A stretch of DNA of 64,000 nt from assembly GCA_003164675.1 (NCBI GenBank), contig PLTX01000034.1, forward strand, positions 9,680 to 73,679. The letters run 5' to 3'. Position 1 is the first letter of the stretch. Every line of letters starts with the position of its first letter. Below, one piece after another: positions 9,083 to 62,284 of the stretch. The notes under the pieces are model-generated. The model had not been told where the DNA came from. It saw nothing but the letters and a program-made list of their open reading frames with translations, and made no database searches. Source of the stretch: Verrucomicrobiota bacterium. Its GTDB lineage: Bacteria; Verrucomicrobiota; Verrucomicrobiia; Palsa-1439. Made by a program: the position numbers and the translations under genes.

Positions 9083-11251
9083 TCAGCGATCTGTGCGCAA
9101 CCGTTCCTGCAACCGGCTGAAACGGGCTGCAGTTTTGTTATTGCGCACCGCAATGGCCAGCGCCTTTTTCGATCCGATAAGGATCACGAGCTTCTTGCCG
9201 CGCGTGATCGCGGTGTACAGCAGGTTCCGCTGCAGCAGCACGAAATGCTGCGTGAGCAGCGGCACAATGACGCACGGGTATTCGTTGCCCTGCGATTTGT
9301 GGACGCTGATGGCGTACGCGGGCAGCAGTTCGTCCATGTCCGTGAACTCGTAGGGAATCTCGCGTTCATCAACCTCGACGATGACCTGCTGCTCGACCAG
9401 ATCGATCCTCTTGACGCGGCCCAGATCGCCGTTGAACACATCCTTGTCGTAATTGTTGCGGATCTGCATCACCCGGTCGCCGACGCGGTACGTGCGCCCG
9501 AACCGCTGCACGTTCGGCCCGCTCGGATTCAGCGTCGATTGCAGTTCGCGATTCAAATTCTCCGAGCCGCACAATCCCTTGTGCATCGGCGTCAGCACCT
9601 GCACGTCGCGCATCGGGTCGAACCCGAATTTCTTCGGCACGCGCTCGCCGCACAACGTCTTGATCGTCGCCAGCACCTTCTCGGGTTGTTCCTCGGCTAT
9701 GAAGAAAAAGTCGGCTTCCTGCTGCGCGTCCAACACCGGCATCTGGCCTTCATTGACGAGATGCGCATTCGTGATAATAAAACTGTTCTTGGCCTGTCGG
9801 AAAATCTCGGTCAATCGCACCACGGGCACCCGGTCGGAATCGATCACATCCCGCAGGAAATTGCCCGGTCCCACCGACGGCAACTGGTCCACGTCGCCGA
9901 CGAACACGACCGACGCCGTCAGCGGAATCGCCTTCAACAGGTGATAGGCGAGGGGAATGTCGAGCATCGATGTCTCGTCGATGATGATCATGTCGCCCTG
10001 GAGCGGACGCCGCTCGTTGTGCGTGAACCCGCCTTCGCGCGGCTCGTACTTCAGCAGGCGGTGGATCGTCTGCGCGGGCGCACCCGTCGCCTCGCTCATT
10101 CGTTTGGCCGCGCGTCCCGTCGGCGCGGCGAGCAATACCTTGCCGTTCTTGGCCCGCAGAATCTTGACGATGTTGTTGACGATGGTCGTCTTGCCCACGC
10201 CGGGTCCGCCCGTTATCACCGAAATCTTCGACGTGAGCGCGGTCTGGATGGCGTTCCGCTGCGCGGCGGCCAGTTCCACGCGGGTCTTCTGCTGCACCCA
10301 GACAAGCGCCTTCTCGAAATCGATCGTCGGCAGCGTCAACGGCGCGGCGCGCAGTTCGTGAATCTTGGTGGCGACCCCGCGCTCCGACTTGCACAACCGG
10401 GCCAGGTAGACATAGTCATCCTCGATCACCACGTCGCCGCCCACCGATAATTGGTCAATGGCCTTCTCGATAGGCGCGATCTCGACTTCCAACAATTCGC
10501 GCGCGGCTTCGATCAATCGCTCGCGCGGCAGGCACGTGTGACCCTCGTCGGTCGCGCGGTCGAGCGCGTGCACCACACCCGCCTTCAATCGATGAATGGA
10601 ATCCTTCTCGATCCCCATCTTCGAGGCGATGCCGTCCGCCGTGCGGAAGCCGATGCCGGAAATGTCCTTGGCGAGCCGGTACGGGTTCTCCTGCACGATG
10701 GCCATCGCGTTCTCGCCGTATTGCTTGTAAATCTTCGCCGCGTGCGAGCTGCCAATGCCGTAGCCCTGCAGAAAAATCATGATGTCCCGCACGCTCTTCT
10801 GCGTCGTCCACGCTTCCTTGATCCGCTTGGCGCGTTCGGGACCGATCCCGTCCACTTCCCGCAACCGTGCCGAAAACGTGTCGATCACTTCCAGCGTGCG
10901 CTCGCCGAATTTCTCGACAATCCGGTCGGCGAACGTCTCGCCGATGCCTTTGATCAGGCCGCTGCCGAGATACTTCTTGATGCCAACGACCGTGCGCGGC
11001 AACACGGACTCGAATCGCTCGACCGCAAACTGTCGCCCCCATTGTTTGTGGTTCACCCAATGGCCCTGGGCGCGGACGCTCTCGCCAACATTCAGCGCCG
11101 CGAGATTGCCTACGATGGTGATCGGCTCGGTCCGCCGCGTGCCGCCTTCCGGCAGAAGTTGCGCCACGGTGTAATGGTTCTCCTCGTTGGAGTAAATGAC
11201 ATGCTCCAGCGTGCCTTCAACGGTCTGCAATGGTTCGTCTGCCGTGGCCAT
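9083..11251 (-). CDS. recD2: ATP-dependent RecD-like DNA helicase (RecD2 family, SF1B)
   Basis: 722 aa. Walker A GGPGVGKTT, motif DETSMLD, VGDVDQLPSVGPG, YAISVHKSQGNEYP. The N-terminal HhH and SH3-like region is typical of RecD2. Confidence 0.9.
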   Translation of the reverse strand: MATADEPLQTVEGTLEHVIYSNEENHYTVAQLLPEGGTRRTEPITIVGNLAALNVGESVRAQGHWVNHKQWGRQFAVERFESVLPRTVVGIKKYLGSGLIKGIGETFADRIVEKFGERTLEVIDTFSARLREVDGIGPERAKRIKEAWTTQKSVRDIMIFLQGYGIGSSHAAKIYKQYGENAMAIVQENPYRLAKDISGIGFRTADGIASKMGIEKDSIHRLKAGVVHALDRATDEGHTCLPRERLIEAARELLEVEIAPIEKAIDQLSVGGDVVIEDDYVYLARLCKSERGVATKIHELRAAPLTLPTIDFEKALVWVQQKTRVELAAAQRNAIQTALTSKISVITGGPGVGKTTIVNNIVKILRAKNGKVLLAAPTGRAAKRMSEATGAPAQTIHRLLKYEPREGGFTHNERRPLQGDMIIIDETSMLDIPLAYHLLKAIPLTASVVFVGDVDQLPSVGPGNFLRDVIDSDRVPVVRLTEIFRQAKNSFIITNAHLVNEGQMPVLDAQQEADFFFIAEEQPEKVLATIKTLCGERVPKKFGFDPMRDVQVLTPMHKGLCGSENLNRELQSTLNPSGPNVQRFGRTYRVGDRVMQIRNNYDKDVFNGDLGRVKRIDLVEQQVIVEVDEREIPYEFTDMDELLPAYAISVHKSQGNEYPCVIVPLLTQHFVLLQRNLLYTAITRGKKLVILIGSKKALAIAVRNNKTAARFSRLQERLRTDR

Positions 11252-39523: not shown

Positions 39524-39749
39524 GCAGAGGATGCGGGTCGAGCATCGTCAGCGTAGGTTGTAGAGATACAGCGCCAAATATTGCTGTGGAGGTCAGTTGC
39601 GAAGAGCGGCAACGAATTCTTCTGAAGTAACGCCCGCTTGTTTCAGAACCCCGTGCAATGTTCCAACCTTCAGTTCACGGTGGAGCGGCACCACACAACG
39701 GCCCGCGCTCGGCGGTAGGATGCACGCCGAAAGCGGAAGGAGAATCGCG

Positions 39750-40046
39750 ATGGATCGTCTACATGTCTGCATTCTGTTTTCTGTCTTCGCTATTACCGCT
39801 GCCGGTGCGGGCGATACCAACGCGCCCGCTGCTACCAATGCTACCAGCAACGCCGCGCCCACTAGCGTCACGAGCAATGCTCTGCCTGCCAATATCACAA
39901 TCGACGGCATCGTCTATTCAAGCGTCACATGGCGCACAGTCACGGCTGCGACTGTCTCCATTTTCCACAGTACGGGTATTGCGGCGATTCCACTGTGGAA
40001 GTTGCCACCCGAACTTCAGAAGCGATTCGGATACGACCCTGGCTGA
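39750..40046 (+). CDS. Small secreted hypothetical protein (Ala/Thr/Asn-rich)
   Basis: A GGAAGGAGA SD, then MDRLHVCILFSVFAITAAGAG (signal peptide). Confidence 0.4.
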   Translation: MDRLHVCILFSVFAITAAGAGDTNAPAATNATSNAAPTSVTSNALPANITIDGIVYSSVTWRTVTAATVSIFHSTGIAAIPLWKLPPELQKRFGYDPG

Positions 40047-41331
40047 CTGTTATAGGGGAGCCGGGAGACGAGCATTTGCTGGAGAAGAAGACAGTTCGTG
40101 TTGATCTGCTGAATCTATCGTGTTTGTACTACAAGATGTCGAAGCTACAACAAATGTTGGATAAACGAGAGCGTGAAAAACAGAACGCCGACAGGCTGAA
40201 GTAGGGTGAGATGCTGGCCGAAAATGGAAGGAAGCGCGTCAACTATATCGTCTACGCATTGGGCTTAAAGGGACGGGTTAAAGGCAAGGTACTGGTCCCG
40301 TATCGCGAAGGGGATGGAACGTTTCCGATTTACTCGGAAGATCTTCAACGCAAGAACGTTAGCGACAAGATCCAGAAGGAGGAAAACAAAGTTGCTGGTG
40401 TATCCGATATTGCGAAAGCTGTTAGCCTAATCCGTGCGGGTGGTCATCGTTGGCGGTTGAAGGAATACGAAACAGGGCAGAAAAACATCTTCAAGCGCGA
40501 GCATATACGGATTCATGAAGTTTAGGCGAGCTTCTGGTGATCACAGCCGCTCCACTCCCTTGCTTCTCGACTCCGGTTTGACAACTCGCTCAGGTCGCCA
40601 GACGGGGCGTGACCCCGAAGGTCAGGAGCGCTCGCACGAGCAGGCCGCGCCTGAGGCAAGCAAGCCCACGATTCAAAGTGGATCGTCGCCCCGGATTAGG
40701 CTCGGTGTATCCTCCATTGAAAAATGACTGGACAGTAGATATATGATTGTGTATATTCGGGACGGTTCTTTGAAAACATGGTTAATGGGAAATGGCTGAT
40801 GGGACGCGAAGGAGACGACCGTTGCGAAGCCACGAATGACCCGGCCTTCGCTGAAGCTACGGCAGGCAAGCGCGAATCAGGCACGGATGGCACGAAGGAC
40901 GACGGTCGTGCGGAAGCCCGACCCTCCGAGCGGAAACGGTGGCCCCGACGTCGGAGTCGGGGTAAACTCGCCGGACGACCGGTCCGTGCCCACCGTGCGC
41001 GGCAAGGGCGACAGCAGCACGCAAGAAAGTGAAAATTGCAAAACGAAGCCAATTTTTCGGAGTGTTAGAGGATTTGGATGATATTGAGGGACAAGATGTT
41101 AGAGTGGCAAGTGGGACAAATTGTCACTTGGCTTCGTTTTGTCAAAAATGGCTTCGTTTGGGGCACCGGGGAGGGTGTTGGGGCGGGGTTATGTTGACGA
41201 ATGGCTTGCCGGACGCGGGTGGAGCCTGGGGACGACGTGGTTGCGTCTTGAAGACTCGGCTTGCGGCCTACAACGGCGCGGCTCACCGGGAGGTTCGCCC
41301 TCCCATTTGACTGCGCGTACGCCCCTCACCT

Positions 41332-41378
41332 TGATCCTCTCCCCCGAGGGGAGAGGAGAACGCCCTCCTACCAGGCTG
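41332..41378. repeat. REP-like palindromic element family A, intergenic copy
   Basis: gcccctcacc..tcctctcccc-cga-ggggagagga..gccctcc, a 10-bp perfect stem with a 3-nt loop. Confidence 0.6.
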
Positions 41379-41597
41379 CGCCCTACGGGTCGTATGCCTC
41401 GAGATTATTCAGGGGAAGGAGATGCGTTTGACGAAAGGCAACGCAGGGGCGTAAAATGCCGACGACGGGAAGAAGCAGTATGGAAGTCGACGGGAAAAAC
41501 TCTTCGCAATCGGCGTGGTTGATGGTCCAGACGGGCTTGTCCCTGTCGGTGACGGGCGCGATGGCGGTGGGTTTGCGGTCGCTGCCGGAGGTGGCAC

Positions 41598-43711: not shown

Positions 43712-45049
43712 TCAGTTTGTCAGGGGTGTCAGCGCGGGTTCTCGCGGCAGAGCCGCCGGTGAGACCGGTGCCGTCAAACTCTTCACCAACACCTTCGAAT
43801 TGCGGCCGCTTTGCTCGTATTTCTCGCGACGCGCGGGCGGCAGGTCTTCGGTTGTCCCCTCCGTGTATCCCAGTTTGTGCTGGAAAAAGGTGAACGTCTG
43901 CGTCGACAGGCAGAAGATCCGCTCCGCGCCCTGCTCGCGCGCGAGGTTCTCGACGAACAACGCCAGCTTGGTGCCGATGCCCCGATTCTCATGAGCGGGG
44001 CTGACGGCCAGGCTCGCCAGTTCGGCCATTTTCTGCTCCGGGTGCGGGTGAAGCGCGATCAGGCCGACGATGTTGTTGTCGATCTCGAAGACAAAATACT
44101 CGCCGATGTGTTTGTCGAGGCTGCTGCGCGTCCGCTTGATGAGTTGCTCTTCCTGGATCGACGGCTTGATGAGCGCCATGATGTGGCGAAGGTCCTTGCG
44201 CATCGCTTTGCGGATCGCCTGATATTCGTCCGTATAAATCAACGTCCCGATACCCTCGTTCGAGAACACCTCGGCCAGCAGACCTTCGTCCACCTGGCCG
44301 CTGATGATGTGCACGCGCGGGACGCCGCTTTGGCTGGCCTGGAGCGCATGCTGCGCCTTGGACATCATTTCGGGCACAAACTTGTCCGCGAAATTCTTCA
44401 GCGCCGCTTCCAGTTCCTTGACCGATATTTGTGGCACGACCTTGCCGTCGATTTCGAGGCCGTTCCCGCTGCCGATGAACATCAGCTTGACCGCGCCGAG
44501 CTCGCGGGCCATTTCGACCGCGACCGCGTCCGAATTCAGGCGGTAGGTGTGACCGTTTCCGTCGAATCCGAGCGGAGGGATGACGGGCACAATGCCCTTG
44601 TCGAGCAGCGTGCGCAGCATCTCGATATCCACCTGATGGACCTTGCCCGTGTGCTGGTGGTCGATGCCTTTGATGATGCCGAGCGGCACGGCTTCGACAG
44701 CGTTGGTCTGCGCGGCGCGAATGTCGTTGAGTTTCAAGCCTTCGAGAATCTCGTGCGTGACGTTCGTGGCCGCCGTGATGGCGATGCCGAGCGTGGCCGC
44801 ATCCGTCACACCGGCGCCGTCGTAATTGGAAATCGGCTCCTGAAGGCGTTCCGACAATATCTTGATCTGGTGGCCGGCTCCGTGGACGAGCACGATGCGG
44901 ATGTTCAGGCTGCGCAACACCGCGACATCAAGCAGCAGGTTGCCGAAATTTTCATCCGCCACCACCGCGCCGTCGATGGCGATGATGAACACCCGGTCCC
45001 GAAACTGCGGGACGTAATGCAGGATTTCACGAAGATCGGTCGGTTTCAT
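43712..45049 (-). CDS. argA: Amino-acid N-acetyltransferase (N-acetylglutamate synthase; amino-acid kinase + GNAT domains)
   Basis: 445 aa. AAK-fold N-terminus (FIIAIDGAVV...IVLVHGAGHQI) and C-terminal GNAT (ASLAVSPAHENRGIGTKL). Same architecture and length as E. coli ArgA. Confidence 0.85.
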   Translation of the reverse strand: MKPTDLREILHYVPQFRDRVFIIAIDGAVVADENFGNLLLDVAVLRSLNIRIVLVHGAGHQIKILSERLQEPISNYDGAGVTDAATLGIAITAATNVTHEILEGLKLNDIRAAQTNAVEAVPLGIIKGIDHQHTGKVHQVDIEMLRTLLDKGIVPVIPPLGFDGNGHTYRLNSDAVAVEMARELGAVKLMFIGSGNGLEIDGKVVPQISVKELEAALKNFADKFVPEMMSKAQHALQASQSGVPRVHIISGQVDEGLLAEVFSNEGIGTLIYTDEYQAIRKAMRKDLRHIMALIKPSIQEEQLIKRTRSSLDKHIGEYFVFEIDNNIVGLIALHPHPEQKMAELASLAVSPAHENRGIGTKLALFVENLAREQGAERIFCLSTQTFTFFQHKLGYTEGTTEDLPPARREKYEQSGRNSKVLVKSLTAPVSPAALPREPALTPLTN

Positions 45050-45270: not shown

Positions 45271-46332
45271 ATGAGCATGACCAAGATCACGTACGCGCTA
45301 TTCTCACTATCACTGGCAGTCGTGGCTGCATCGGTTGCTCGCGCGCAGTCTGCCGCGTCCACACCGAACAACACGGGCCCGTATCACGTCTCGCAGACCT
45401 TTCACGTCGGAGGCGAAGGCGGCTGGGATTATCTGACCGTCGATCCCGAGCACAAGCTCTTGTACGTCCCGCGCTCGTCGCACACGATGGTTCTCGATGC
45501 CGCCACCGGCAAGACCGTTGCCGACATCCCCGGCCAGAAACGCAACCACGGCGTGGCCATCGCGCCCAGCGCCAGCCGCGGCTTCATCACCGATGGCCAG
45601 GATGGTTCCGTCACGGTATTCGACCTGAAGACCTACGCGGTGCTCGGCAAGGTCAAAGCGGCTGACGACGCCGACGGCGTCATCTACGACGCGGCCAGCG
45701 GCAAGGTGCTGGTGGCCTGCGGGGACGCCGGTGTGGTGGTCCCGATTTCGGCAGACGTGGATCTCAAGACGGGCAAGGCGGACGCGGCGGTTGACCTGGG
45801 CGGCAAACCCGAGTTTCTCGCTGCCGACGGCCAGGGCAAGGCGTTCATCAATCTCGAAGACAAGGACCAGATCGCGGTGGTGGACACCAAGACGATGAAA
45901 GTCGTCAACAAATGGCCCGTCAGTCCCGGCGGTTCGCCCGTCGGCATGGCCATGGATACCGCGCATCGCCGCCTGTTCATCGGTTGCCGCAAACCGCAGA
46001 AGCTGATCGTCATGAACGCCGATGACGGCAAAGTTTTGGCCGACCTCCCGATTGGCGCCGGCGTCGATGCCACGGCATTCGCCAATGGCGATGCTTTTGT
46101 CAGTTGCGGCGACGGCACGCTCGCCGTGGCCCGCGAGACCGCGCCCGGCAAATTCGAGATCGTCCAGACTGTTCAAACGCTGCGGGGCGCGCGCACCATG
46201 GGTATCGATCCATCAACCCGTACCATCTATCTTCCCACGGCGGAATTCGGTCCCCCGGTCGAAGGCCAACGTCGACCTCCGGCCAAACCCGGCACCTTCA
46301 TGGTCGTGGTGGTAAGCCCCACGGGGAAGTAA
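45271..46332 (+). CDS. Secreted YncE/YVTN-type beta-propeller repeat protein
   Basis: GGAGG SD and a signal peptide MSMTKITYALFSLSLAVVAASVARA. Repeated blade-like segments (LLYVPRSS, GFITDGQDGSVTVFD, VLVACGD). Confidence 0.6.
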   Translation: MSMTKITYALFSLSLAVVAASVARAQSAASTPNNTGPYHVSQTFHVGGEGGWDYLTVDPEHKLLYVPRSSHTMVLDAATGKTVADIPGQKRNHGVAIAPSASRGFITDGQDGSVTVFDLKTYAVLGKVKAADDADGVIYDAASGKVLVACGDAGVVVPISADVDLKTGKADAAVDLGGKPEFLAADGQGKAFINLEDKDQIAVVDTKTMKVVNKWPVSPGGSPVGMAMDTAHRRLFIGCRKPQKLIVMNADDGKVLADLPIGAGVDATAFANGDAFVSCGDGTLAVARETAPGKFEIVQTVQTLRGARTMGIDPSTRTIYLPTAEFGPPVEGQRRPPAKPGTFMVVVVSPTGK

Positions 46333-46438
46333 CGAAACTGCATAGCTGCGGTAGTCATCCGTCTGGTCCTGAAGTGCGATGGCCGGCGGGACATTTGCAT
46401 TGCGCAGTCGACCAGTGGGTGACAGTATTGCGTAAGTC

Positions 46439-48712
46439 ATGAATACGAGCCGTTTCATCGGCGCGGTCGTGATATTTCTTTGTGCCTTATCCCAGGGAAC
46501 GGCACAGGAGCGCGCATCAGACAATCCGTATCCTTTGCTTGTACGTTTTTTGGGAAATCACCGAGCATTCAGTGCGACGCTTGTTTCCGTTGTTCAGTCA
46601 GAGGACGGCATGGTGATGGAAGGTGGGAGTTATCAATACACTTATCTGAACGGCAACGTTCGAATCGAATCGGCTTTTTCGTCGCAGTGGTCAGCACTGT
46701 TTGCCATCTCGCCTCCTGACACCAACGCGATCAAGCGTGCTGGACTGGATTTGATCGTGGAGGTGTTCGCACCTGATAGGAAGAAACTCTGCCTTATCTT
46801 CCCCAACGCGCGGGCCTACTGCGAAACGGAGATCCCCGCTGAGATTCATCCGCCGAAGGAAGGTGACCTGAAGATAGATCGCGTCCCGGACGGCTCGGAG
46901 ATCATAGATGGTCACCCTTGCGCCCGAACCAAGGTGACAATACACGAAACGAAGCCAACCCCCGGAACCGAGGAGAAAGTCACTGCGGTGTTATGGGCAG
47001 CACAGGACCTGGATGGCTTCCCAGTGAAGATTAAAGCACGCTTGGAAACCCCCATGGGTGTGTTCACATCCACTGAAGCTTTCACCGACATCAAGCTGGT
47101 GACTCCCGATAGTTCACTTTTTCATCCACCGCCCCACCTGAAGATCTATCGAAGCATGGACGAGTTCTCCGAAGCCATACAGAACGCGACGGCTACCGGT
47201 GAAGAGCGGACCCGGCGATTCTGGGCCGCCGTGGAAAAGGGCGATGTGGTTCAATTGGAGTCCTTTTCGAAAAAGGATCCAGAGCTGCTTCGGGCGCTCG
47301 CGAAGGACGATCAAACCCCGTTGCACGTTGCCGCCCGGGTAGGGCAGAAGGAGGTAGTCCAGTGGTTGGTTAACAAGAAGGCGGATGTGAATGCCCGAGA
47401 CGGACGGAAATCCACCCCGCTACACGAGGCTGCTGTAGGAAATTCAGCCGCCGTTATTGATATCCTGCTGAAGGCAGGGGCGAAACTTGAAGCCTTGGAC
47501 AATGATGGTCACACGCCTCTGCTTGTCGCGGCATCGAAGGGATCAAAGGAAACCGTTGAAGCCTTGTTACGGGCCGGGGCGAACGTCAGCCCGAGCGACA
47601 CGCAGGGGATGACATCACTTCATCTCGCAGCCGCTCGCGGGGAAAAAGATATTGTCACAATTCTGGTCTCTCATAAGGCCGATGTAAACGCCAAGAACAA
47701 ACAAGGTCTGACTCCCTTGTGGGAAGCTGTTTTACAGGGCTACGAAGGTGTAGTGGAAGTTCTCACAGCAGGCGGAGCCAACATCAATCAGATCGGGGTT
47801 GATGGACAAACACCTTTGCTCTGGGCCGTCGGAAACGACAGGAAGGCAATGGCGGGCACGCTTGTGGCCTGCAAGGCCGACGCGGCCACGAAGGACGCAT
47901 CCGGACAACCGATATTCCTCATTGCATTCCGCAACGGCAATTTGGAACTTGCTCGAAAACTTGTGGCAGAGCCGACGGACGTGAACCTCAAAGGACGTGG
48001 AGGCTTCACGGCAGCGCATCTGGCGGCGGCTCACGATTGGGTGGATGTCTTGAAAATCCTGATCGCTCGGAAGGCCGACATTGGTGCGGTGGACGATTTC
48101 GGTACCCGTCGTCCGTTACACTTGGCCATTGAAAGGGGCTCCCAATCAGCGGCTGAGTTCCTCGCGCACGTCGATCCGGATCTGGAGGCACGAGACGCTC
48201 ATGGAAGGACTCCATTGCAGATGGCCGCTGAGAAGGGCTGGACGAATGTTGTGGAGGCGTTGTTGACTGAAGGCGCCGAGCCGTGTGCCCGCACCGGTGA
48301 CAGGATGACTCCGGCGATGCTTGCGGAGAGAGCCGGTCATCAGGAAATCGCGATTAAACTCAAGCAACAGGAAGAGCAATGCGATAATACAGTGCGCAAA
48401 CTCGAAGATTCTCTTCACGCCGCCGATACTTCGGAACTGAAAACCCTGCTGGAAGCCCGCCCGCATTTGATCAATCATCGAAACCAACAAGGCCAGTCAC
48501 TTGTTCAGCAGGCGGTTCTGGCCGGCAGCGCATCTGCGGTTGGGTTGCTTCTGGCGCAGGGGACGAATTGGGCTCTGAATCGGGAGCCCAACCATATTCT
48601 GAACGATGCAGCACGTCGTGGGGACAGTCAGATCGTCGAGCTATTGTTGGCACATGGAGCACCACGCAGACGTCAACGAGGGGGATGGCAGGCTCTTGCA
48701 CGTGGCTGCTGA
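46439..48712 (+). CDS. Secreted ankyrin-repeat protein (N-terminal about 270-aa non-ANK domain + about 14 ANK repeats); apparent 3' part of the same gene continues in another frame
   Basis: Signal peptide MNTSRFIGAVVIFLCALSQGTAQE, followed by tandem G.TPLH.AA..G...VV..LL..GADVN repeats. Confidence 0.75.
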   Translation: MNTSRFIGAVVIFLCALSQGTAQERASDNPYPLLVRFLGNHRAFSATLVSVVQSEDGMVMEGGSYQYTYLNGNVRIESAFSSQWSALFAISPPDTNAIKRAGLDLIVEVFAPDRKKLCLIFPNARAYCETEIPAEIHPPKEGDLKIDRVPDGSEIIDGHPCARTKVTIHETKPTPGTEEKVTAVLWAAQDLDGFPVKIKARLETPMGVFTSTEAFTDIKLVTPDSSLFHPPPHLKIYRSMDEFSEAIQNATATGEERTRRFWAAVEKGDVVQLESFSKKDPELLRALAKDDQTPLHVAARVGQKEVVQWLVNKKADVNARDGRKSTPLHEAAVGNSAAVIDILLKAGAKLEALDNDGHTPLLVAASKGSKETVEALLRAGANVSPSDTQGMTSLHLAAARGEKDIVTILVSHKADVNAKNKQGLTPLWEAVLQGYEGVVEVLTAGGANINQIGVDGQTPLLWAVGNDRKAMAGTLVACKADAATKDASGQPIFLIAFRNGNLELARKLVAEPTDVNLKGRGGFTAAHLAAAHDWVDVLKILIARKADIGAVDDFGTRRPLHLAIERGSQSAAEFLAHVDPDLEARDAHGRTPLQMAAEKGWTNVVEALLTEGAEPCARTGDRMTPAMLAERAGHQEIAIKLKQQEEQCDNTVRKLEDSLHAADTSELKTLLEARPHLINHRNQQGQSLVQQAVLAGSASAVGLLLAQGTNWALNREPNHILNDAARRGDSQIVELLLAHGAPRRRQRGGWQALARGC

Positions 48713-49946
48713 TACATGTAACACCGGAATAGTGGTTGTGCTCTTGGAGCACGGCGCCCGTGTTGCCGGGGACGACTATGCACGAGGACCAGCCTATACC
48801 AAGGACTGCGCCAACGTAATGGCTGATTTGATTAGACCCTATCGTGTTGCGCAGTCGGCACGGTTGATTTTCGAAGCGGCCGGCGCAGGAGACGTTGAAA
48901 CAACACGGAAACTTTTGTCTGCCGATACTGGTCTCATCAGCGCCACCAACCAGGATGGAGCAAATCCATTGTTCTCGGCCGCTCAGTCTGGGCGGCAAGA
49001 AGTCGCAGAACTGCTTTTGGCGAGCGGGGCTAATGTAAACGCCACAGCAAGGCCGAGCACCACGCCACTTTTTGTCGCTGTAGCCGGGCCGCACGAAAAA
49101 CTGGTTGAACTGCTGTTGGCGCATGGTGCATTCGTCGACGCGAAAGACAGTGACAATTGCACGCCATTACGCCTCGCTGCGATGGGCCCTTTTGCTGACA
49201 GGAACTATACACAAATCGTGCGAATGCTGCTGGCGAAGAATGCCAATCCCAATATTGCGGATAAGTGGGGTTGGACCCCATTACATTGCGCAGCTAGAAT
49301 GGGCCACACGGATGTAGTGCAAGCCCTCCTGGCATACAAGGCGGCCCTCGAACTCAAAACGAAAGAGGGTTATACGGCGCTATATCTTGCGGCGATGTAT
49401 GGGCACGGCGAAATCGTCGACGTTCTTGTACACGGCGGCGCTGAAATCAACGTGAAGGACAAGCACGATTCAACGCCTTTGCACGATGCAGCCGCCGGAG
49501 GACACGCCGGCTCGGTAAAGGCTCTCGTGACGAGCGGGGCTGCCGTCAATGTCACCAACGGGACTGGAGCTACACCGCTCCACGCGGCAACAACCAAGGA
49601 AGTCGCCGACATTCTCATCGCGAACGGAGCCAAAATCGGCACGTGCGATGCCCATGGCTTTACTCCTTTGCACTCCGCCGTCTCTGCAAATCGCATTGGA
49701 GTTATCCAGGTCCTTCTTGCGAACAATGCAAATCCCAACTCGAGGGAAAAGACCGGAAAGACCCCGCTGCACTTCGCAGCAAGCGAAGAGGCGGTGGATT
49801 TGCTCTTGGCGCATGGCGCAGATATCAACGCTGTTGCTGCCGACGGGTTGACCCCCATTGATGAGGCTAGGCATGCTAACAGGATCGACATCGCTACCTA
49901 CATGCACCAGCAATCTCTGGTGAATGCGAAGGCACACGGGAATTAG
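48606..49946 (+). CDS. Ankyrin-repeat protein (about 12 ANK repeats); likely the frameshifted continuation of 46439..48712
   Basis: Frame-0 ANK repeats begin exactly where the frame-2 ANK repeat of the upstream ORF is interrupted at about 48661-48668. Confidence 0.65.
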   Translation: MQHVVGTVRSSSYCWHMEHHADVNEGDGRLLHVAADTCNTGIVVVLLEHGARVAGDDYARGPAYTKDCANVMADLIRPYRVAQSARLIFEAAGAGDVETTRKLLSADTGLISATNQDGANPLFSAAQSGRQEVAELLLASGANVNATARPSTTPLFVAVAGPHEKLVELLLAHGAFVDAKDSDNCTPLRLAAMGPFADRNYTQIVRMLLAKNANPNIADKWGWTPLHCAARMGHTDVVQALLAYKAALELKTKEGYTALYLAAMYGHGEIVDVLVHGGAEINVKDKHDSTPLHDAAAGGHAGSVKALVTSGAAVNVTNGTGATPLHAATTKEVADILIANGAKIGTCDAHGFTPLHSAVSANRIGVIQVLLANNANPNSREKTGKTPLHFAASEEAVDLLLAHGADINAVAADGLTPIDEARHANRIDIATYMHQQSLVNAKAHGN

Positions 49947-50081
49947 ACGTGTGTTTCACCCCGCCGCCGTTCATACTCCACAAACGACCACTCTGTTCGA
50001 TCTTCCCTTGCGGTTTCGGTCCATGCGTTTCGGTCGTAGGCGGGGAACGTTGTGTCGCGGGGGACGTGGCGGTGCGGCGTG

Positions 50082-54829: not shown

Positions 54830-57800
54830 TCACGCCTTCAGTGCCGCTGTAAACCTCGGCACAGTCTCAAACAAATCACCCACAATAGGCACAACCTTGG
54901 GCCGGGCGCGGCGTTTGTTCAACGTCATCAGGGGCGCATCGGCGTCCTTGTTGAAGGCGATGATGGTGGCTTGTTCGCCGATGTAATCGACGTGTTGCGG
55001 CGCGCCGCTGACGCCGATGGAGATGATGAGCTTCGGGTTGACGGCGGTGCCGGTCTGGCCGATCTGTTGCTCGAAGGTAAGCAGCTTCAATTCCTCGACG
55101 ACTTTACGGGTGCCACCGAGCATGACGTTCTTCACCCCAATTTCCTCGAGGCGTTTCTTGAGCGGCAGGATCACCAAATCGAAATTCTCCCGATTGCGCA
55201 CGGCGTAGCCGACATCAATGATGAACTCGGCATCGGCAATGGATTTCACGCCACTGTCGTCGTGCGTGGCTCGTAGCGCTTGGGCCAGTTCGTCGGTTGC
55301 GGCATCGTATTCAAACTCCAGTGGAACCAGAAACACATGCTTCTCGCTCTCCGCTCTTCCCTTTCCTCTCTCCGCTTCACCCGCCACGGTCATAGCCAGC
55401 GGATGCTCGGCGATTTGTCCGATGGTCGCGACGCGTTGGACCTTGCCGCCGAAGGCCGGGGAGACGAGATCGACGCTGCCATTGCGGGAAACGGCCTCGA
55501 CCACGTTGTAGCGGGCTTGCACACGCGGGAACGTCCGGGCGAATTGCGCAAGAAGTTCGTTGGCCCACGTGCCGGAAGCCAGCACAGCGGGCAACAGATC
55601 CTTCCATATGGTTTGCAGCGCCGCGAGTAGGGCGGATGAAGTGGAATTTTGCAGATGTTCAGAACTGACGAAGTAAATGGAATCAGCGTTTACGCGGGCG
55701 GCGACCGAGCGGACGGATGCTTCGTCAAAGCAGCCGAGCATCAATACGTGAAAGGGCAGAGACAGCACGGCGGCCGTCGCGGCAGCGGTTTCGACGCCGT
55801 CAAGTTTATCGGGCGTGGCGACGAACACGGCTGCGTTACGCCCCGGGAGTTTGTCCGGGGTGATTGACTCGATTTTGCCCGAGAACGAGCCGCTGCCCCG
55901 TGTCATTGTTTCAACACGCGCGATCTTCCGCACCAAGGCAGCAACGGCTTCGGGCGTTGTTTCCATGCCCTCTGCGACGGTTGGTTTCCCGGGTAATCGG
56001 TAGCGCAGATCAAACTGCGGACCAGTCGCGAGTTGTGCGGCATCGACGACTTCGAGGGGCTTGGTCAATGCGTCGAGATAATCATCGACGCTGAACTCGA
56101 GGTCGGTCGAGGAATCGGCCATGGCGAGGACGACAGGGCCATCGGTGGCGATCGAAACATCGAGTTTTTGCAGGCTAAGTTTTGTTTGATCGCCGGCAAT
56201 GATGAAGCCCTTGACGTTGGAAAAATGCGCCTGGCCGAGATTGCCCGCGAGAACGGCGGCGAGAACGGCGTCGCCACACAAGACGAGGTCGCAGGGTAAT
56301 TGCTTCTGGCCGGCGAGATCGGCAATAAGCCGCGCGGCATCGTGCGGGCTGTCGAGAAGATCGTCAGTTTTGATCAAGGCAGCGTTGTCGGCGCCAAGCG
56401 CGAGGGCACGGAGCAATGATTCCGTGGCGAATTGTGGAGCGGCGGCGATCGCGGTGACCGTGACGTTGTCGGAAGCGGATTTCAATTCGATGGCGTGTTG
56501 GAGTGCCGAGCGACTGGCCGCGTCGATGTCAAAATGCGTTTCCAACAACTCGCCGTTGATGACGCGAGGTCGCGGCGAGAGAACGGGCGCGATGTTCAAC
56601 ACGACCAGCACGTGCAGCGGGTGCGTCACGCGGTGGGCGGGGCGGGCGCGGTGTTCGGTTTCGCGGCCTTCGTGCGCTTGCAGCGATAATTGCGCGACTC
56701 GGATGTCGGGCGGGTAGAGGCCTTGCTTGAGCAATGTGAGATCGCGCTCGAATTCTGACTGGAGCCGCTCGATCTCGCGTTTGGCGTAGTCGAGATAGGC
56801 CTGGCAGGATTGTTCTGCAAATGTGCGATGAGAGGCATCGGTGTCCGCGCAATTCTGTTTGAGCCACTTGGTGCGCCAAAGGGCGGAGTCCACCACTTTT
56901 AGGTAACCCGCGATCTCGGCGAGCTTGAACATGATGGGCTGGAAATTCGCATTCTGCCAGGTTTGCGCGCCGAAGGTGTCGGCAGCGCGGCGCAACGTGC
57001 GGAGGAAGGTAACCCGGGCTGCTTCCAGCGGATCGGCTGGCAGCTCGCCCTCCAGTTTTGCCTGCGGTAGTACGTGGTCGAGCAAGTCGCGGAGGATGAG
57101 GAAGCGTTGGACTTCGTTGGTGCCTTCGTAGATGTTCAGGACGCGGGCGTCGCGGCGATGCTTTTCCAATTCGTGCATCTGGGTACTACCTTCGATGCCC
57201 ATGATCTTTTCGGCAGCACGGATGGTGCGATGGAGGGCTTCGCTGGCGTAATATTTGCCGATGGCGGACTCGGTGCGGACGGATTTCGTGCCGTGATGAT
57301 CGGCGCGGCCAATGAGTTCATAGGCAAGCGACTCGGTGGCGTATAACTCGGTGGCCATGCCGCCGAGGATTTGCAGGGCCCATTCTTCCTTGTCGAGTTT
57401 GTGGTCGAGAATGAACGCGCGGGTTTGTTCGACGATTTTCGCCATCATCGACACGGCGCTGACACAGAGGCCGAGGCGGCCGACATTGAGGGTCTCGAGC
57501 GCATTGACCTGGCCGCGGCCTTCGATGCCGATGACGTTTTCGCGCGGGACGCGGACGCTGGTGAGGCCGAGTTCGTTGGTCGGCGAGCCGCGCTGGCCCA
57601 TTTTCTCCTCGTCTTTGCCAACGACAAGCCCTTCGGCGTGACGATCAACCATGAAACCGGTCGGACCTTCCTTCGTGCGGGCGTACAGACAGAAAACGCC
57701 GGCGACATGGCCGTTGGTGATCCACATCTTCGCGCCGTTGAGCTCGTAATACTCGTAGAACTCCTCGTCGCCGTCGCGGCGGATTTGCGCGATGTCGTGG

Positions 57801-60800
57801 ATGGGGATGCGCTTGCCATTGTGTTGGTAGTAACGGAACTTCGTCGGGTCGTCGGTCTTGTAGTCGTACTCGCTATAATCAATCTTCGAGAGATCGACGG
57901 TCGCGGCGTCGATGATGTTTTTGCGGTCCGTGCCGAGCATGAAATATTTCGCGCCGTCGGCGTCGGTGAGGACCTCGACCCTTTTCAATTCGGCGCGGGT
58001 CTGAATTCCGCCGGAATCGGAGCCGGCGCTGGGTTCGGTCAGGGCGAACGCGCTGATCTGGCCGGCGGAGATGAGACGGAGAAAAAATTTGTGGGCCTCG
58101 GCGCGGCGGTCGAGTTCGGCAATGACGGCTTCGGCGCGGGGTTGGAGCGAATCGAGTGTGGCGAGCGACTTTTGAAGTTCGCTCTTGAACGCGACGAGGT
58201 CGGTACGCAGGCCGGCGCGGCCGGCATCCATGAAATGAGAGAGAAAATCGCTGGCGATGGCGCGGAGCATCGGTTTCTTGCCGATGTCAGTCTTCACTCT
58301 TTCGCCCAAGTCGGTGAAGACTTTCTTCACCTTGAGCGCTTCCGGTGATTCCAACATGCGAAGGATCCGCGAGATTTCCGATTTGAGATTGGAGAGGAGC
58401 GACGTGTTGGACAGAAACTCCTGCAGATCGGCTTTGGCGCGCGGCAGATCCTGGTTGAGGCCGAGTAGGATCGGCGTGGTGCCGATGCTCGAATGGGCCA
58501 TGATCGTCAGCGCGTACGACGGGTCGGCGTAGCGCATCGAGAGTGGGCAGAGGATGTAGTAGTGCGCCTTGAGCAGGCCTTCGCCGCCGAATTCCTTCGG
58601 GATGTACATACGGGTGAAACCGCGGGCAATCATGTCGCGTACGTCGGGGAGCGGGACCATGTGCAGTTTCTCGACGAGGCGGTGATAGGGCAGGCCATCG
58701 AAACGGGCGTTCCAGAATTTCTCGGTGAAATATTTGTGGAGCTCGTTGAAATAGGCATTGAGCTCGGCGTCAGCGTGCAGCATTTCGGGCGTGAAGCGCC
58801 AGGAGTTGGCGTCGAATGGTTTTACGAGGAAATCGCCGTAGTCGTATTCCTGTTTCGTGTCGAGTGCTTCGCGGTAATTGAATGCGGGCGGGCGTTGGAG
58901 AGGTGCTTCGATGTAGCCATGTTCAAGAACGGATGCGCCAAGGCCGGTGGGATGGGGTATGGGCGTTGCGCCCGTGAACATTTTGGCGAGTTCGGCGTCG
59001 AGTTCGCTGGTGATGGGGAGGGGGCGAATGGCGGCTTGCGAGAAGGCGGAGAGTTTGGCGTTGACCTCCGGACCGACTTGGCGACGGAGTTCCTCGTTGT
59101 CGTAGAGCAGATACGCGAAGCTGACGCTGTCGCGATAGAATTTGGAGAGAACATCGTCTTCGCTGTAAGCGGTGCCGCCGAAGATCTGGCCGGCGTTGTA
59201 GGTGAGGCTGCCGGGATCAGGTCCGAGAGCCTCCGAAGCGAGCAGTTTGACCAGCGCGGGTTCCTTGTCGGCCTGTGGGAGCAACGCCTTCAGAAGATGG
59301 ACCTGTGCTTCCATTTCGCTCAGGAGTTTTTTGACGGAGCCGAACTTGATGATGCCGTCATGCCCATCTTCGTCCTTAAAGAGCCCCGGGAATTGAACGC
59401 GGCTCGTGGCGTGCTGGTGGCAGCGTTCCAACAACATTTCGCCCGCGCCGAGCGCGATGGCGCAGAGGTCGGTGGCGGTTTGCTGCAGTGTCAGGGTTTG
59501 TTCCGGCACAAATTCTTTCCACACACTGCGGGCAGCCGTGAGGCCGATCCATGGGTGCTCCGCGAGTTCGGGTCGGGCGGCGACCTGTGCGGAGTAAATT
59601 CCGGAAACAAGCGCGGCCAGCGCCGGGTCGCGGCGGGCGAGTTCGCGCAGGATGATGTCCCGCGGCGGCGACGCGGCCTCGGCCAGGACGTGCAGGAAGT
59701 TCCTCTGTTCCTGCGCGAGCGGGTTGCCGTGTTCGAGGTCTTTGATGGCCTGTTTCGAAAAAAGCTTTTCGAGACGCGCCACCATGGCGATGCGCGTTTG
59801 GAGCGGTCGGTCGACGGGCGGCACGGGTGGCGGCGGGAGATGTTCCAGCAACTGGCGCGCGTCGGCCTCGGCCCAGAAGAATTTGCGGCGCTTGGCGTGG
59901 ACGACGATGCGAGCGATCTGCTGGTCGATGCGCGGGTTCTTGATGTCGGCGGCGATGGGTTGCGCCTCAACGAGCAGATGCTGCAACCAGCGGGTACGGC
60001 CGGCGTCGACGTAGCGTGGCCCGGCGTAGACGGTTTCGGAGAATTCGTGGAGTTTGGCGGAGAGCGCGAGGACCTTGTCGGGCTTTGTGTTCAGAGCGAG
60101 ACCAGTAATGTCGACTTCGCGGGGGAGACTTCTTGTGTTATCCGGCGCGGTGGACTTTTGCAGCGCGAGAAGTTTCGCATTGGCGATGGTTGGGGCGCTG
60201 TAAATCAGGCGCTGCTTGCGCTGACGGGTCCAATCAACGTCATTCGGGGCGGAGCGCCAGCAGGTTTCGCATTTGACGCAGTTTTCAAAATTGACGACGA
60301 GCTGCGACTGGCCGAGGTCGTCGGTGAGACATTCGTAGACCCTGGCGGGGCAAACGTGCCAGAGCGGGGACTCGGCGATCTTGGCGCGGTTCTCGAAGTT
60401 CTCGGGACGGAAGACCTTGATGTGCGAGTGATGCTCGGAGAAATAGCGGATGAGCGAAAGCTTTTCCTCCCACGGCTGCTCGATTCTCACAGCGTCGGGG
60501 TCAAGCTTCACGCGGTCACGGGTGAGTGCACGATATTTCTGGAAGAAGCCGGAGAGGAATTTCTCAGGTGAAGGGCGCGTGATAATGAGCCAGATGAGTT
60601 CGCAGATCCATTGGATCGGCATTAGCACGAGCAACAGTGCGGCGAAGACAGGGAAGGCGATGTGGTCGAACAAGCTCAAGCTATGTCTGGCGGAACGGAT
60701 GGCCCGGGAAAGCTTGACGGGCAACGTTGTGTCATCGTTGCGATACAAGTGGTCGGCGGCGACGGCGAGAATTTGTGGCGCTTTACGGAACAGAACCGAA

Positions 60801-62284
60801 ATGGGCGGAAGGAAACTGGATAGCGGCTCGCCATCGACGCAGAAATCGAGATGGAGTTTGCCGCCGGCGGATGAAGATATGATGAATGATTTTGCGGAGG
60901 GCTTGGTGGCGGCCTTCAGACCGAGCGCGTCGCGTTGTTCGCGAAGATCGCGAAAGAGCGGGACCCATTGTTTCAGAGGTAATGTTTCGCGGGTGAACTT
61001 GGCGAGTTGCCAGAGTTTCTGGTGCGTGCCAAGCGAGGGATTGCTGGCGATGTAGAGCGTGCCGGTGGCCAGGTCGGCGGCGCGACCGAAAAACACGCGC
61101 GTATGCTCGACGTAGTGCGGCCATTTTTCCAGGAACTCGACGTTTTTGAAATAATGCGTGTTGCGGAGCGGACGTTCGTAGAGTTCTTCGAGGCGCGCGC
61201 GAGAGAAGGTTCTGTCGGTTGTGCGGATTTCCAGAATTGCGTGGGCAAACAGGTGCCCCATCGCCGTGGCCGGGCCGGTGAAATTGGGGTAGGGGAAATC
61301 GAGACCGACGCCGGTGGCGGCGCCGCCGATGGCCAGGCCGTTGTCGACGAGTTGCGGGAGTTCGCGAACGCCCCCGCCACGGATGATTTTCGCGCCGTAG
61401 GCGGTCGAGCGACTGTTGTTGGTCCAGCGTTTGACTTCGGGCAGGCCCTTGAACCATTCCATGAGACGGTTGTGGTCGCCGCCGAACTCTTTGCTGAGAT
61501 TCTCAAGCGGCAGCACAAGGCCAAGCGAGATGCTGGACTTGTTCGTGTACAGGAAGCCGCCCATGTTGAGATTGGCCGTGCGATTGTGGATCGAGCCGTT
61601 GCGCAGCAGGATTTCGAAGGCGGCGCCTTCGCCTTTTGGCAGCGCGAACGTGTGCTCGATGTAATCGGGGTCGACCTCGATGATTTCCTTGATGCCCTGG
61701 AGGAAATGCGGCGCGCCGGGGTCGGTGGTGCGTTCGTAGCCTTCCTTCGAGACGAGCTGCGATGCGTCGCCTTCGGCGAGGAACACCACGTCGGCATAGA
61801 TGGAGCCACGGTCGGTATGAACGCCGATGATGCGGTTGTTCTCGTCGCGGAGCAGGCCGTCGACCGTCGTCTCCGTGAGAATGTGCGCGCCGAAAGATTT
61901 CGCGAGTTCGGCGAGGTAGTGATCGTAGGTGGGGCGCAGAACGGTGTAGCAATTGGTGAAGGTGGAAGGGTTGCGGTAGCTGAGTCCGGCGAGCGAGTGG
62001 CCATTGTAGATGTAGAAGCCACGTTTGGTGACGGGACGTTCGTGGGCGGAGTTGCGAACCACCTCTTCGCCAAGGACATCCGGTTGGGCGAGGTTCTCGG
62101 TGAAATAGACCGCGCCCGACCAATTCTCCGCCCCGGGAAACGCGCCGGCCTCGATGACAAGGACAGGGATGTCCGCCTTCGCCAGAGCGATGGCGGCGGT
62201 GATACCGGCTGGTCCTGCCCCCACGATGACGACGTCATATTCCCAGGAAGCCATGCGCGGATCATTATAGAGAGTCCGTAGCAT
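54830..62284 (-). CDS. 2484-aa multidomain megaprotein: ETF-ubiquinone oxidoreductase (FixC/FixX-like) + acyl-CoA dehydrogenase + ETF beta + ETF alpha fused in one ORF
   Basis: Uninterrupted 7455-nt ORF. The N-terminus YDVVIVGAGPAGITAAIALAKADIPVLVIE (FAD Rossmann) runs through a membrane-association helix to VCPARVYEC...NFENCVKCETCW (ETF-QO 4Fe-4S domain, about aa 650-690). The ACAD core follows at about aa 1250-1760 (AFALTEPSAGSDSGG, NGAKMWITNG, YEGTNEVQRFLILRDLL). An ETF-beta-like block is VLVVLNIAPV...ALGADNAALI. The ETF-alpha C-terminal FAD domain is QIGQTGTAVNPKLIISIGVSGAPQHVDYIGEQATIIAFNKDADAPLM...IVGDLFETVP. Confidence 0.85.
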   Translation of the reverse strand: MLRTLYNDPRMASWEYDVVIVGAGPAGITAAIALAKADIPVLVIEAGAFPGAENWSGAVYFTENLAQPDVLGEEVVRNSAHERPVTKRGFYIYNGHSLAGLSYRNPSTFTNCYTVLRPTYDHYLAELAKSFGAHILTETTVDGLLRDENNRIIGVHTDRGSIYADVVFLAEGDASQLVSKEGYERTTDPGAPHFLQGIKEIIEVDPDYIEHTFALPKGEGAAFEILLRNGSIHNRTANLNMGGFLYTNKSSISLGLVLPLENLSKEFGGDHNRLMEWFKGLPEVKRWTNNSRSTAYGAKIIRGGGVRELPQLVDNGLAIGGAATGVGLDFPYPNFTGPATAMGHLFAHAILEIRTTDRTFSRARLEELYERPLRNTHYFKNVEFLEKWPHYVEHTRVFFGRAADLATGTLYIASNPSLGTHQKLWQLAKFTRETLPLKQWVPLFRDLREQRDALGLKAATKPSAKSFIISSSAGGKLHLDFCVDGEPLSSFLPPISVLFRKAPQILAVAADHLYRNDDTTLPVKLSRAIRSARHSLSLFDHIAFPVFAALLLVLMPIQWICELIWLIITRPSPEKFLSGFFQKYRALTRDRVKLDPDAVRIEQPWEEKLSLIRYFSEHHSHIKVFRPENFENRAKIAESPLWHVCPARVYECLTDDLGQSQLVVNFENCVKCETCWRSAPNDVDWTRQRKQRLIYSAPTIANAKLLALQKSTAPDNTRSLPREVDITGLALNTKPDKVLALSAKLHEFSETVYAGPRYVDAGRTRWLQHLLVEAQPIAADIKNPRIDQQIARIVVHAKRRKFFWAEADARQLLEHLPPPPVPPVDRPLQTRIAMVARLEKLFSKQAIKDLEHGNPLAQEQRNFLHVLAEAASPPRDIILRELARRDPALAALVSGIYSAQVAARPELAEHPWIGLTAARSVWKEFVPEQTLTLQQTATDLCAIALGAGEMLLERCHQHATSRVQFPGLFKDEDGHDGIIKFGSVKKLLSEMEAQVHLLKALLPQADKEPALVKLLASEALGPDPGSLTYNAGQIFGGTAYSEDDVLSKFYRDSVSFAYLLYDNEELRRQVGPEVNAKLSAFSQAAIRPLPITSELDAELAKMFTGATPIPHPTGLGASVLEHGYIEAPLQRPPAFNYREALDTKQEYDYGDFLVKPFDANSWRFTPEMLHADAELNAYFNELHKYFTEKFWNARFDGLPYHRLVEKLHMVPLPDVRDMIARGFTRMYIPKEFGGEGLLKAHYYILCPLSMRYADPSYALTIMAHSSIGTTPILLGLNQDLPRAKADLQEFLSNTSLLSNLKSEISRILRMLESPEALKVKKVFTDLGERVKTDIGKKPMLRAIASDFLSHFMDAGRAGLRTDLVAFKSELQKSLATLDSLQPRAEAVIAELDRRAEAHKFFLRLISAGQISAFALTEPSAGSDSGGIQTRAELKRVEVLTDADGAKYFMLGTDRKNIIDAATVDLSKIDYSEYDYKTDDPTKFRYYQHNGKRIPIHDIAQIRRDGDEEFYEYYELNGAKMWITNGHVAGVFCLYARTKEGPTGFMVDRHAEGLVVGKDEEKMGQRGSPTNELGLTSVRVPRENVIGIEGRGQVNALETLNVGRLGLCVSAVSMMAKIVEQTRAFILDHKLDKEEWALQILGGMATELYATESLAYELIGRADHHGTKSVRTESAIGKYYASEALHRTIRAAEKIMGIEGSTQMHELEKHRRDARVLNIYEGTNEVQRFLILRDLLDHVLPQAKLEGELPADPLEAARVTFLRTLRRAADTFGAQTWQNANFQPIMFKLAEIAGYLKVVDSALWRTKWLKQNCADTDASHRTFAEQSCQAYLDYAKREIERLQSEFERDLTLLKQGLYPPDIRVAQLSLQAHEGRETEHRARPAHRVTHPLHVLVVLNIAPVLSPRPRVINGELLETHFDIDAASRSALQHAIELKSASDNVTVTAIAAAPQFATESLLRALALGADNAALIKTDDLLDSPHDAARLIADLAGQKQLPCDLVLCGDAVLAAVLAGNLGQAHFSNVKGFIIAGDQTKLSLQKLDVSIATDGPVVLAMADSSTDLEFSVDDYLDALTKPLEVVDAAQLATGPQFDLRYRLPGKPTVAEGMETTPEAVAALVRKIARVETMTRGSGSFSGKIESITPDKLPGRNAAVFVATPDKLDGVETAAATAAVLSLPFHVLMLGCFDEASVRSVAARVNADSIYFVSSEHLQNSTSSALLAALQTIWKDLLPAVLASGTWANELLAQFARTFPRVQARYNVVEAVSRNGSVDLVSPAFGGKVQRVATIGQIAEHPLAMTVAGEAERGKGRAESEKHVFLVPLEFEYDAATDELAQALRATHDDSGVKSIADAEFIIDVGYAVRNRENFDLVILPLKKRLEEIGVKNVMLGGTRKVVEELKLLTFEQQIGQTGTAVNPKLIISIGVSGAPQHVDYIGEQATIIAFNKDADAPLMTLNKRRARPKVVPIVGDLFETVPRFTAALKA

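Follow-up and report, generated by a model that had tools for sequence, protein, structure and literature searches.

Ordinary frameshift pseudogenes and truncated accessory genes carry a lesion whose length is not a multiple of three, leave two overlapping open reading frames (ORFs) that can be matched to an intact homologue, and occupy variable, non-core positions of the genome; programmed frameshifts are very few of the frameshifted genes of bacteria. We analyzed a locus that shares all these features of the ordinary kind. It lies in a 64,000-nucleotide (nt) stretch of contig PLTX01000034.1 (assembly GCA_003164675.1) of a Verrucomicrobiota bacterium, hereafter the window, where a gene for a long ankyrin repeat (ANK) protein is interrupted by a change of reading frame. 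Three further comparisons suggest themselves: the downstream ORF in the +1 frame and a GGAG motif shortly upstream are reminiscent of prfB-type +1 frameshifting, long bacterial ANK arrays are found in the Dot/Icm Ank proteins of Legionella and Coxiella and in the ANK proteins of Wolbachia and Rickettsia, and the predicted open half-barrel fold of the N-terminal domain is that of the LolA/LolB/LprG/ependymin superfamily, which includes DUF4412. The data presented here make it likely that the locus is a recently broken, strain-specific accessory gene of an uncultured Verrucomicrobiia bacterium, carrying a real frameshift in every copy retrieved.

Exploring the two reading frames, we found that the upstream ORF (ORF1) encodes 757 amino acids (aa), of which 741 are native, ending in ...SQIVELLLAHGA (IVELLLAHGA), and the last 16, PRRRQRGGWQALARGC, are read out of frame up to a TGA stop at 48710-48712 (Table 1). 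In the +1 frame, a TGA at 48600-48602 is followed by open sequence from 48603 through 49946, whose translation includes ...HHADVNEGDGRLLHVAADTCNTG... and ...MEHHADVNEGDGRLLHVAADTCNTG.... Removing any one base at 48661-48663 yields a single ORF of 1168 aa with the junction LLLAHGAHADVN. The first in-frame ATG codons of the downstream ORF (ORF2) are at 48606 and 48654, the latter exactly at the junction, and gene callers assign it 446, 430, 400 or 375 aa. Searching with the repaired protein retrieved one homologue at 95% coverage of the query (P0002, 1164 aa, 42% identity); the ORF of this homologue extends upstream to include a signal peptide, and the 1218-aa version is on record as P0316. In P0316, residues 5-787 are matched by residues 1-741 of ORF1 (45% identity), while ORF2 aligns with residues 747-1216 (E 1e-66), reaching the C-terminus and taking in the non-repeat C-terminal cap GADINA..GLTPxDEARxANRIDxATYxHQ..NAK. 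Given that both align, in order, with one intact homologue, ORF1 and ORF2 read as two pieces of one ANK gene; the continuous 1168-aa ORF obtained by a 1-nt deletion and the single 1218-aa homologue thus bear out the initial annotation, which had proposed one ANK gene split by a frameshift. The other homologue, P0003, has 876 aa in one complete ORF, and the gene next to it downstream is unrelated. As P0316/P0002 and P0003 are in-frame single ORFs of such different length, the alignments indicate that the ancestral state is a single ORF and that the number of C-terminal repeats is naturally variable.

The lesion is real and is present in every copy retrieved. The index gives 28 blocks for the exact 757-aa product with its junk tail, which at least 24 contigs of JGI, ENA and Logan were seen to carry; in each of the 12 loci fetched, the 3508 nt of the gene, including the junction, show 100% identity to the window. 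In the 90%-identity cluster of this protein, the tail is kept in all seven variant proteins that reach the junction; five cluster variants carry one or two substitutions, and the four of these that reach the junction (P0001, P0126, P0127 and P0129) all keep the tail. The lesion is also kept in contig PLOB01000098.1 (L021) of an NCBI metagenome-assembled genome (MAG), which differs from the window by 5 single-nucleotide polymorphisms (SNPs) in 15.1 kb. The in-order alignment to an intact homologue and the reproducible lesion together place the locus among frameshift pseudogenes and truncated genes, and the two 'ankyrin repeat protein' calls at 46439-49946 are one disrupted gene in every retrieved public assembly. 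Two observations together would have spoken against the initial annotation, an extra base with unanimous support and homologues that are likewise two genes; only the first applies, as the extra base is in all assemblies but the homologues are single genes.

The surroundings of the gene are those of an accessory element. It occupies a variable slot, flanked by a sugar transferase (Bac_transf) gene and a beta-propeller gene, which in the window holds the ANK gene and a remnant of folA and in related loci holds other genes (Table 1). The folA remnant sits between the ANK stop and the Bac_transf stop, and the window contains neither thyA nor any other part of folA. Comparison of the loci indicates that the remnant goes back to the thyA-folA pair seen at the slot in relatives, that the slot is a gene-replacement hot spot with thyA-folA present in some relatives and deleted in others, and that the ANK gene is a derived occupant, most simply gained in the lineage of the window. 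The G+C content at third codon positions (GC3) of the ANK gene is 0.60, versus 0.70-0.83 in 15 neighbouring genes. The GC3 of the three LolA-like/ANK homologues is 0.57-0.60, and that of the genes around each is mostly 0.72-0.82; low GC3 is a trait of the family, which might reflect weak codon selection or repeated transfer from a pool of lower GC. The locus is a tidy example of accessory-gene gain and early decay.

Three lesions fit the junction (GGA GCA [CCACGCA] GAC GTC AAC): an extra C (48662/48663), loss of CA from GCA-CAC-CAC-GCA, or seven extra bases, CCACGCA (48662-48668). The site given in the initial annotation is correct, with two amendments: it is a CC within CACCAC and not a homopolymer, and a single-base insertion is one of three fits. 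All regular ANK loops of the gene that were listed have a conserved Ala (usually Gly-Ala or Lys-Ala) directly followed by x-(V/I/P)-(N/D), as in GGC GCA GAT ATC AAC at 49800 of the window, and this position of Ala in paralogous loops favours the gain of seven bases. Loss of CA is favoured by repeat length, since it restores the canonical repeat of 33 residues, compared with 32 aa for one extra base and 30 aa for seven. Pairwise scores do not separate the three models, being 63-73 against P0316 and 40-49 against P0003. An initial lean towards the seven-base insertion was withdrawn.

Among the three options offered by the initial annotation, recent pseudogenisation fits best. When intact (about 1166-1169 codons), the gene would have specified an exported protein made up of a Sec signal peptide, a LolA-superfamily domain and about 26 ANK repeats in three blocks; the lesion at 48659-48668 falls in the loop that follows the second helix of approximately repeat 15. 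Ribosomes thus read the 741 native and 16 junk residues and stop at 48710-48712. The resulting truncated product, with its signal peptide, LolA-like domain and about 15 repeats, is probably still made and exported, and it may keep some function, because one natural homologue has only 876 aa and the last repeat block is thus dispensable in at least one lineage. The 430-codon remainder downstream has most likely become a very young pseudogene fragment that is not translated: ORF2 is probably silent because it has no signal peptide or detectable start signal and lies inside a translated region, and an ORF2 that is still open is what one would expect of a recent lesion.

Several observations weigh against this account. 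Many of the samples may share one site, and 'every copy retrieved' may amount to one local population. The gene differs from that of L021 by 3 SNPs (2 non-synonymous in ORF1 and 1 synonymous in ORF2), which are too few for measuring selection on either half. ORF2 is fully open, with no further stop and with the ATG at 48654 at the junction, and as neighbouring genes also have no Shine-Dalgarno motif, translation of ORF2 is compatible with its lack of one. The low GC3, considered as proof of recent transfer, is weakened by the same deficit of all three homologues in their own genomes. Furthermore, the analysis found no intact allele and no close orthologue in the range between 45% and 100% identity, so that the lesion can be neither dated nor typed, +1, -2 and +7 all fitting.

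The alternative that fares best, though we consider it unlikely, is gene fission into two working products, an exported LolA-like protein with about 15 ANK repeats and a cytoplasmic ORF2 protein with about 12, started at ATG 48654 or 48606. ORF2 is open over 430-446 codons and has an ATG exactly at the junction; however, its start lies 56-106 nt upstream of the ORF1 stop, within the translated region, and a very recent lesion would leave ORF2 open anyway. It is called as a gene by gene callers, and local genes mostly lack Shine-Dalgarno motifs, so that initiation may not need one, but there is no promoter-like site upstream of ORF2, and a product with no signal peptide would reside in another compartment than its ancestor. 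Likewise, the number of ANK repeats is naturally variable (876 versus 1218 aa), yet neither P0002 nor P0003 is a split homologue. Promoter-like and terminator-like sites did not occur beyond chance level. The repaired 1166-aa and 1168-aa proteins and a protein started at Met58 have no exact entry in the protein collection, but as the real ORF2 proteins are absent from it too, their absence says little.

We regard it as very unlikely that the split is a working arrangement, in which one locus would supply two ANK products to two compartments, either through a low-level +1 shift at CGC-AGA-C that adds some full-length exported protein to an abundant truncated form, or through separate translation of ORF2 into a cytoplasmic ANK protein. 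Even less can be said for programmed +1 frameshifting proper, in which a pause at the rare AGA (48668-48670) downstream of GGAG (48656-48659) would lead a fraction of the ribosomes on to a product of about 1168 aa. ORF2 does lie in the +1 frame, and GGAG is 5 nt upstream of the would-be P-site codon CGC, but the neighbouring genes make no use of Shine-Dalgarno sequences. Host genes rarely use AGA (1.3 per 1000 codons in a set of 15 genes), whereas in the ANK gene itself AGA and AGG are not avoided (2.6 and 9.4 per 1000). On a +1 shift the codons GCA, CCA, CGC and AGA (48659-48670) would give way to CAC, CAC, GCA and GAC, none of which is cognate or near-cognate, and by this reading no P-site codon able to re-pair is present; nor is there a prfB-type in-frame stop at the site, and local RNA structure is ordinary (z +0.26 for a 121-nt region versus shuffled sequence). 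Both homologues, P0002/P0316 (1218 aa) and P0003 (876 aa), are in frame, which argues that the frameshift is not conserved in orthologues. The 'frameshift-regulated gene' of the initial annotation is thus not supported: the rare AGA and the GGAG are the sole features that might be taken for recoding signals, and the homologues are in-frame single ORFs.

An artefact of sequencing or assembly, either an extra base call or a chimeric join of similar ANK repeats, has practically no probability left: although the lesion lies within the most conserved repeat DNA (LLLAHGA-DVN), where paralogous repeats are alike, the site reads CACCAC with no homopolymer, the same sequence recurs in JGI, ENA (k119-named) and Logan contigs and in the NCBI MAG, SNP-bearing variants carry the lesion as well, and chimeric assembly is not credible because the similarity of paralogous repeats does not exceed 85% over 26 nt and their longest exact match is 14 nt, which we judged too short to mislead assemblers. 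With the frameshifted sequence identical across JGI, ENA, Logan, the NCBI MAG and seven variants, the 'sequencing or homopolymer error' suggested in the initial annotation can be set aside, and a recently broken accessory gene remains the preferred explanation. As a separate matter, in L021 an NN scaffold gap (6439-6441) replaces 31 nt of the N-acetylglutamate synthase gene (window 44857-44887); this gap splits the gene call for the synthase in two in L021, an artefact of assembly that has nothing to do with the ANK lesion.

To describe the encoded protein, we combined profile searches with structure prediction. The signal peptide and N-terminal domain announced in the initial annotation are both present, the former as seen by eye and the latter with about 250-270 aa, and a hydrophobic segment with the A-QE motif of the signal peptide is also found in P0003 and in the extended P0002. 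The figure of about 26 repeats was a fair one: a model built from the protein's own repeats scored 22, and 4-5 more are degenerate or capping; in the repaired protein the repeats form three blocks at residues ~258-640, 655-778 and 800-1160. Against Pfam, ORF1 scores 228 bits with Ank_2 and 206 bits with Ank, and ORF2 scores 221 bits with Ank and 219 bits with Ank_2, the gathering cut-offs being 21-27 bits and the E-values for both ORFs 1e-63 to 1e-68; both ORFs are members of the ankyrin repeat families (Pfam Ank, Ank_2, Ank_4).

The AlphaFold2 model of the N-terminal domain, made from a 41-sequence alignment, has a mean predicted local distance difference test (pLDDT) of 83.8 and a predicted template modelling score (pTM) of 0.75. 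A Foldseek search of this model against the PDB placed LolA on top (8cgm_A; E 2e-8, target template modelling score (TM-score) 0.60, probability 1.0) and returned 61 matches at E <= 1e-3, with LolA, ependymin-related and LprG/LppX proteins making up most of the top 50 and target TM-scores mostly of 0.5-0.63; the model thus assigns the domain to the LolA superfamily at the level of the predicted fold. Searching with the N-terminal 287 residues, phmmer found 560 proteins, almost all stand-alone and of 240-270 aa. All five stand-alone relatives that were scanned pass DUF4412 (PF14371) with 32-39 bits, while the window domain, at 12.2 bits (E 0.15), is below the threshold of 21.6 bits; phmmer ties the DUF4412-passing stand-alone relatives to the window domain at E 1e-20 to 1e-24. 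Scanning genome contigs of species representatives retrieved relatives of the N-terminal domain only, at 28-31% identity, in MAGs of Verrucomicrobiota, Deltaproteobacteria and Nitrospirae. Judging from the analogous LolA, LprG and ependymin, the protein in its intact form may be a periplasmic or surface scaffold, in which a hydrophobic ligand would occupy the half-barrel and protein partners would attach to the ANK solenoid. A literature search on DUF4412 and on 'ankyrin' together with 'LolA-like' found nothing.

A signal peptide, a LolA-like domain and about 26 ANK repeats make up a rare and uncharacterised architecture. Among 1.84 billion representatives, the combination of LolA-like domain and ANK repeats occurs at E <= 1e-30 in two other 50%-identity clusters (P0002 and P0003), three including that of the window, and the three homologues are mutually 42-46% identical (window 46439-49946; L013 8001-11495; L022 1679-4309). 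The initial annotation saw the protein as an oddity in a free-living bacterium, which holds for this rare architecture but not for length, as long ANK proteins of 1100-2000 aa are plentiful among bacterial and metagenomic matches.

Table 1. Features of the disrupted ANK gene and of the variable slot in the window and in related loci.
Feature	Locus	Position	Strand	Description
Variable slot	Window	46332..50070	.	Homology to L019 ends at 46331 and resumes at 50071
ORF1	Window	46439..48712	+	757 aa, ANK; protein listed on at least 24 contigs
Sec-type signal peptide	Window	46439..46504	+	Residues 1-22, read by eye: MNTSRFIGAVVIFLCALSQGTA followed by QE; likely cleavage after GTA, before QE
LolA-superfamily, DUF4412-related domain	Window	46526..47149	+	Residues ~30-237; predicted open half beta-barrel (AlphaFold2, Foldseek, phmmer)
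ANK block A	Window	47210..48358	+	Residues ~258-640, ~12 repeats (Pfam and self-built repeat model)
ANK block B, first three repeats	Window	48401..48661	+	In ORF1 frame, up to ...LLLAHGA (Ala741) (repeat model)
Lesion interval GCACCACGCA	Window	48659..48668	+	Frame changes by +1; same in 12 of 12 fetched loci and in L021
+1-frame remainder (ORF2)	Window	48669..49946	+	DVNEGDG..., last block B repeat, linker, ANK block C with ~11 repeats, conserved C-terminal cap, stop
folA 3'-end remnant	Window	49964..50065	-	102 nt, dihydrofolate reductase residues 124-157; to L020, tblastn 76% identity, E 8e-13, and blastn 81% identity
Slot, flanks 96.5% identical	L019	9543-11560		XhoI-type nuclease gene with two in-frame stops and intact methylase
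Slot, flanks ~88% identical	L020	9507-12804		thyA, folA, XhoI-type restriction-modification pair
Slot	L025	9546-14100		thyA, folA, Eco57I-like enzyme
Slot	L026/L027	L027 4965-8716		thyA, folA, DUF4062 protein

Some further observations concern the slot and the rest of the window. In L019, the XhoI-type nuclease gene with its two in-frame stops lies at 9631-10419, and the adjacent N6/N4 methyltransferase gene is intact; read in this way, it would be an orphan methylase beside a decayed nuclease gene. The antisense ORFs at 48471-49124, 49370-49891 and 48146-48490 have no family match above threshold, and Rfam and tRNA scans of the window gave no matches. Over about 1.8 kb (39600-41400), neither strand holds an ORF of more than 150 aa, and the tRNA and Rfam scans are empty there as well. 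On the minus strand, 54830-62284 is a single ORF of 2484 aa, which begins with an N-terminal FAD oxidoreductase and an ETF-QO 4Fe-4S domain and further holds acyl-CoA dehydrogenase N, M and C domains as well as ETF and ETF-alpha domains. It is conserved at 2474-2502 aa in L019, L020, L025 and L026 and looks like a whole electron-transfer chain of acyl-CoA oxidation fused into one polypeptide.

Compared with the systems named at the outset, the locus shares some traits with each. The NCBIfam models AnkY, AnkH and AnkG match the repeats at 70-130 bits, with cut-offs of 450-1400, and no Dot/Icm-type equivalog of NCBIfam is above its cut-off, the best being 132.8 bits versus 600 (AnkY); these matches appear to reflect generic repeat similarity only. 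Dot/Icm effectors are recognised by a C-terminal signal, whereas the window protein has an N-terminal Sec signal as judged by eye, and unlike the hosts of ANK effectors the host here is an environmental Verrucomicrobiia MAG, with no secretion system nearby in the window. The PADLOC defence models gave no full-length match, PDC-M72A, Ankyrin and MzaA being covered in ANK segments only. In contrast to prfB-type +1 frameshifting, the window has no CUU-UGA-type site and no codon predicted to re-pair, and the frameshift is not conserved. The solved LolA structures are 9-15% identical to the window domain, and those retrieved include no ANK fusion; the window domain differs in being fused to a very long ANK array. 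The split of the ANK gene is a real but ordinary feature, unlikely to surprise a specialist and with no bearing on a long-standing open question. It differs from ordinary frameshift pseudogenes in that the lesion is present in every retrieved assembly, that no second disruption has accumulated, and that the upstream part keeps an export signal and a predicted ligand-binding domain, so that it may still work.

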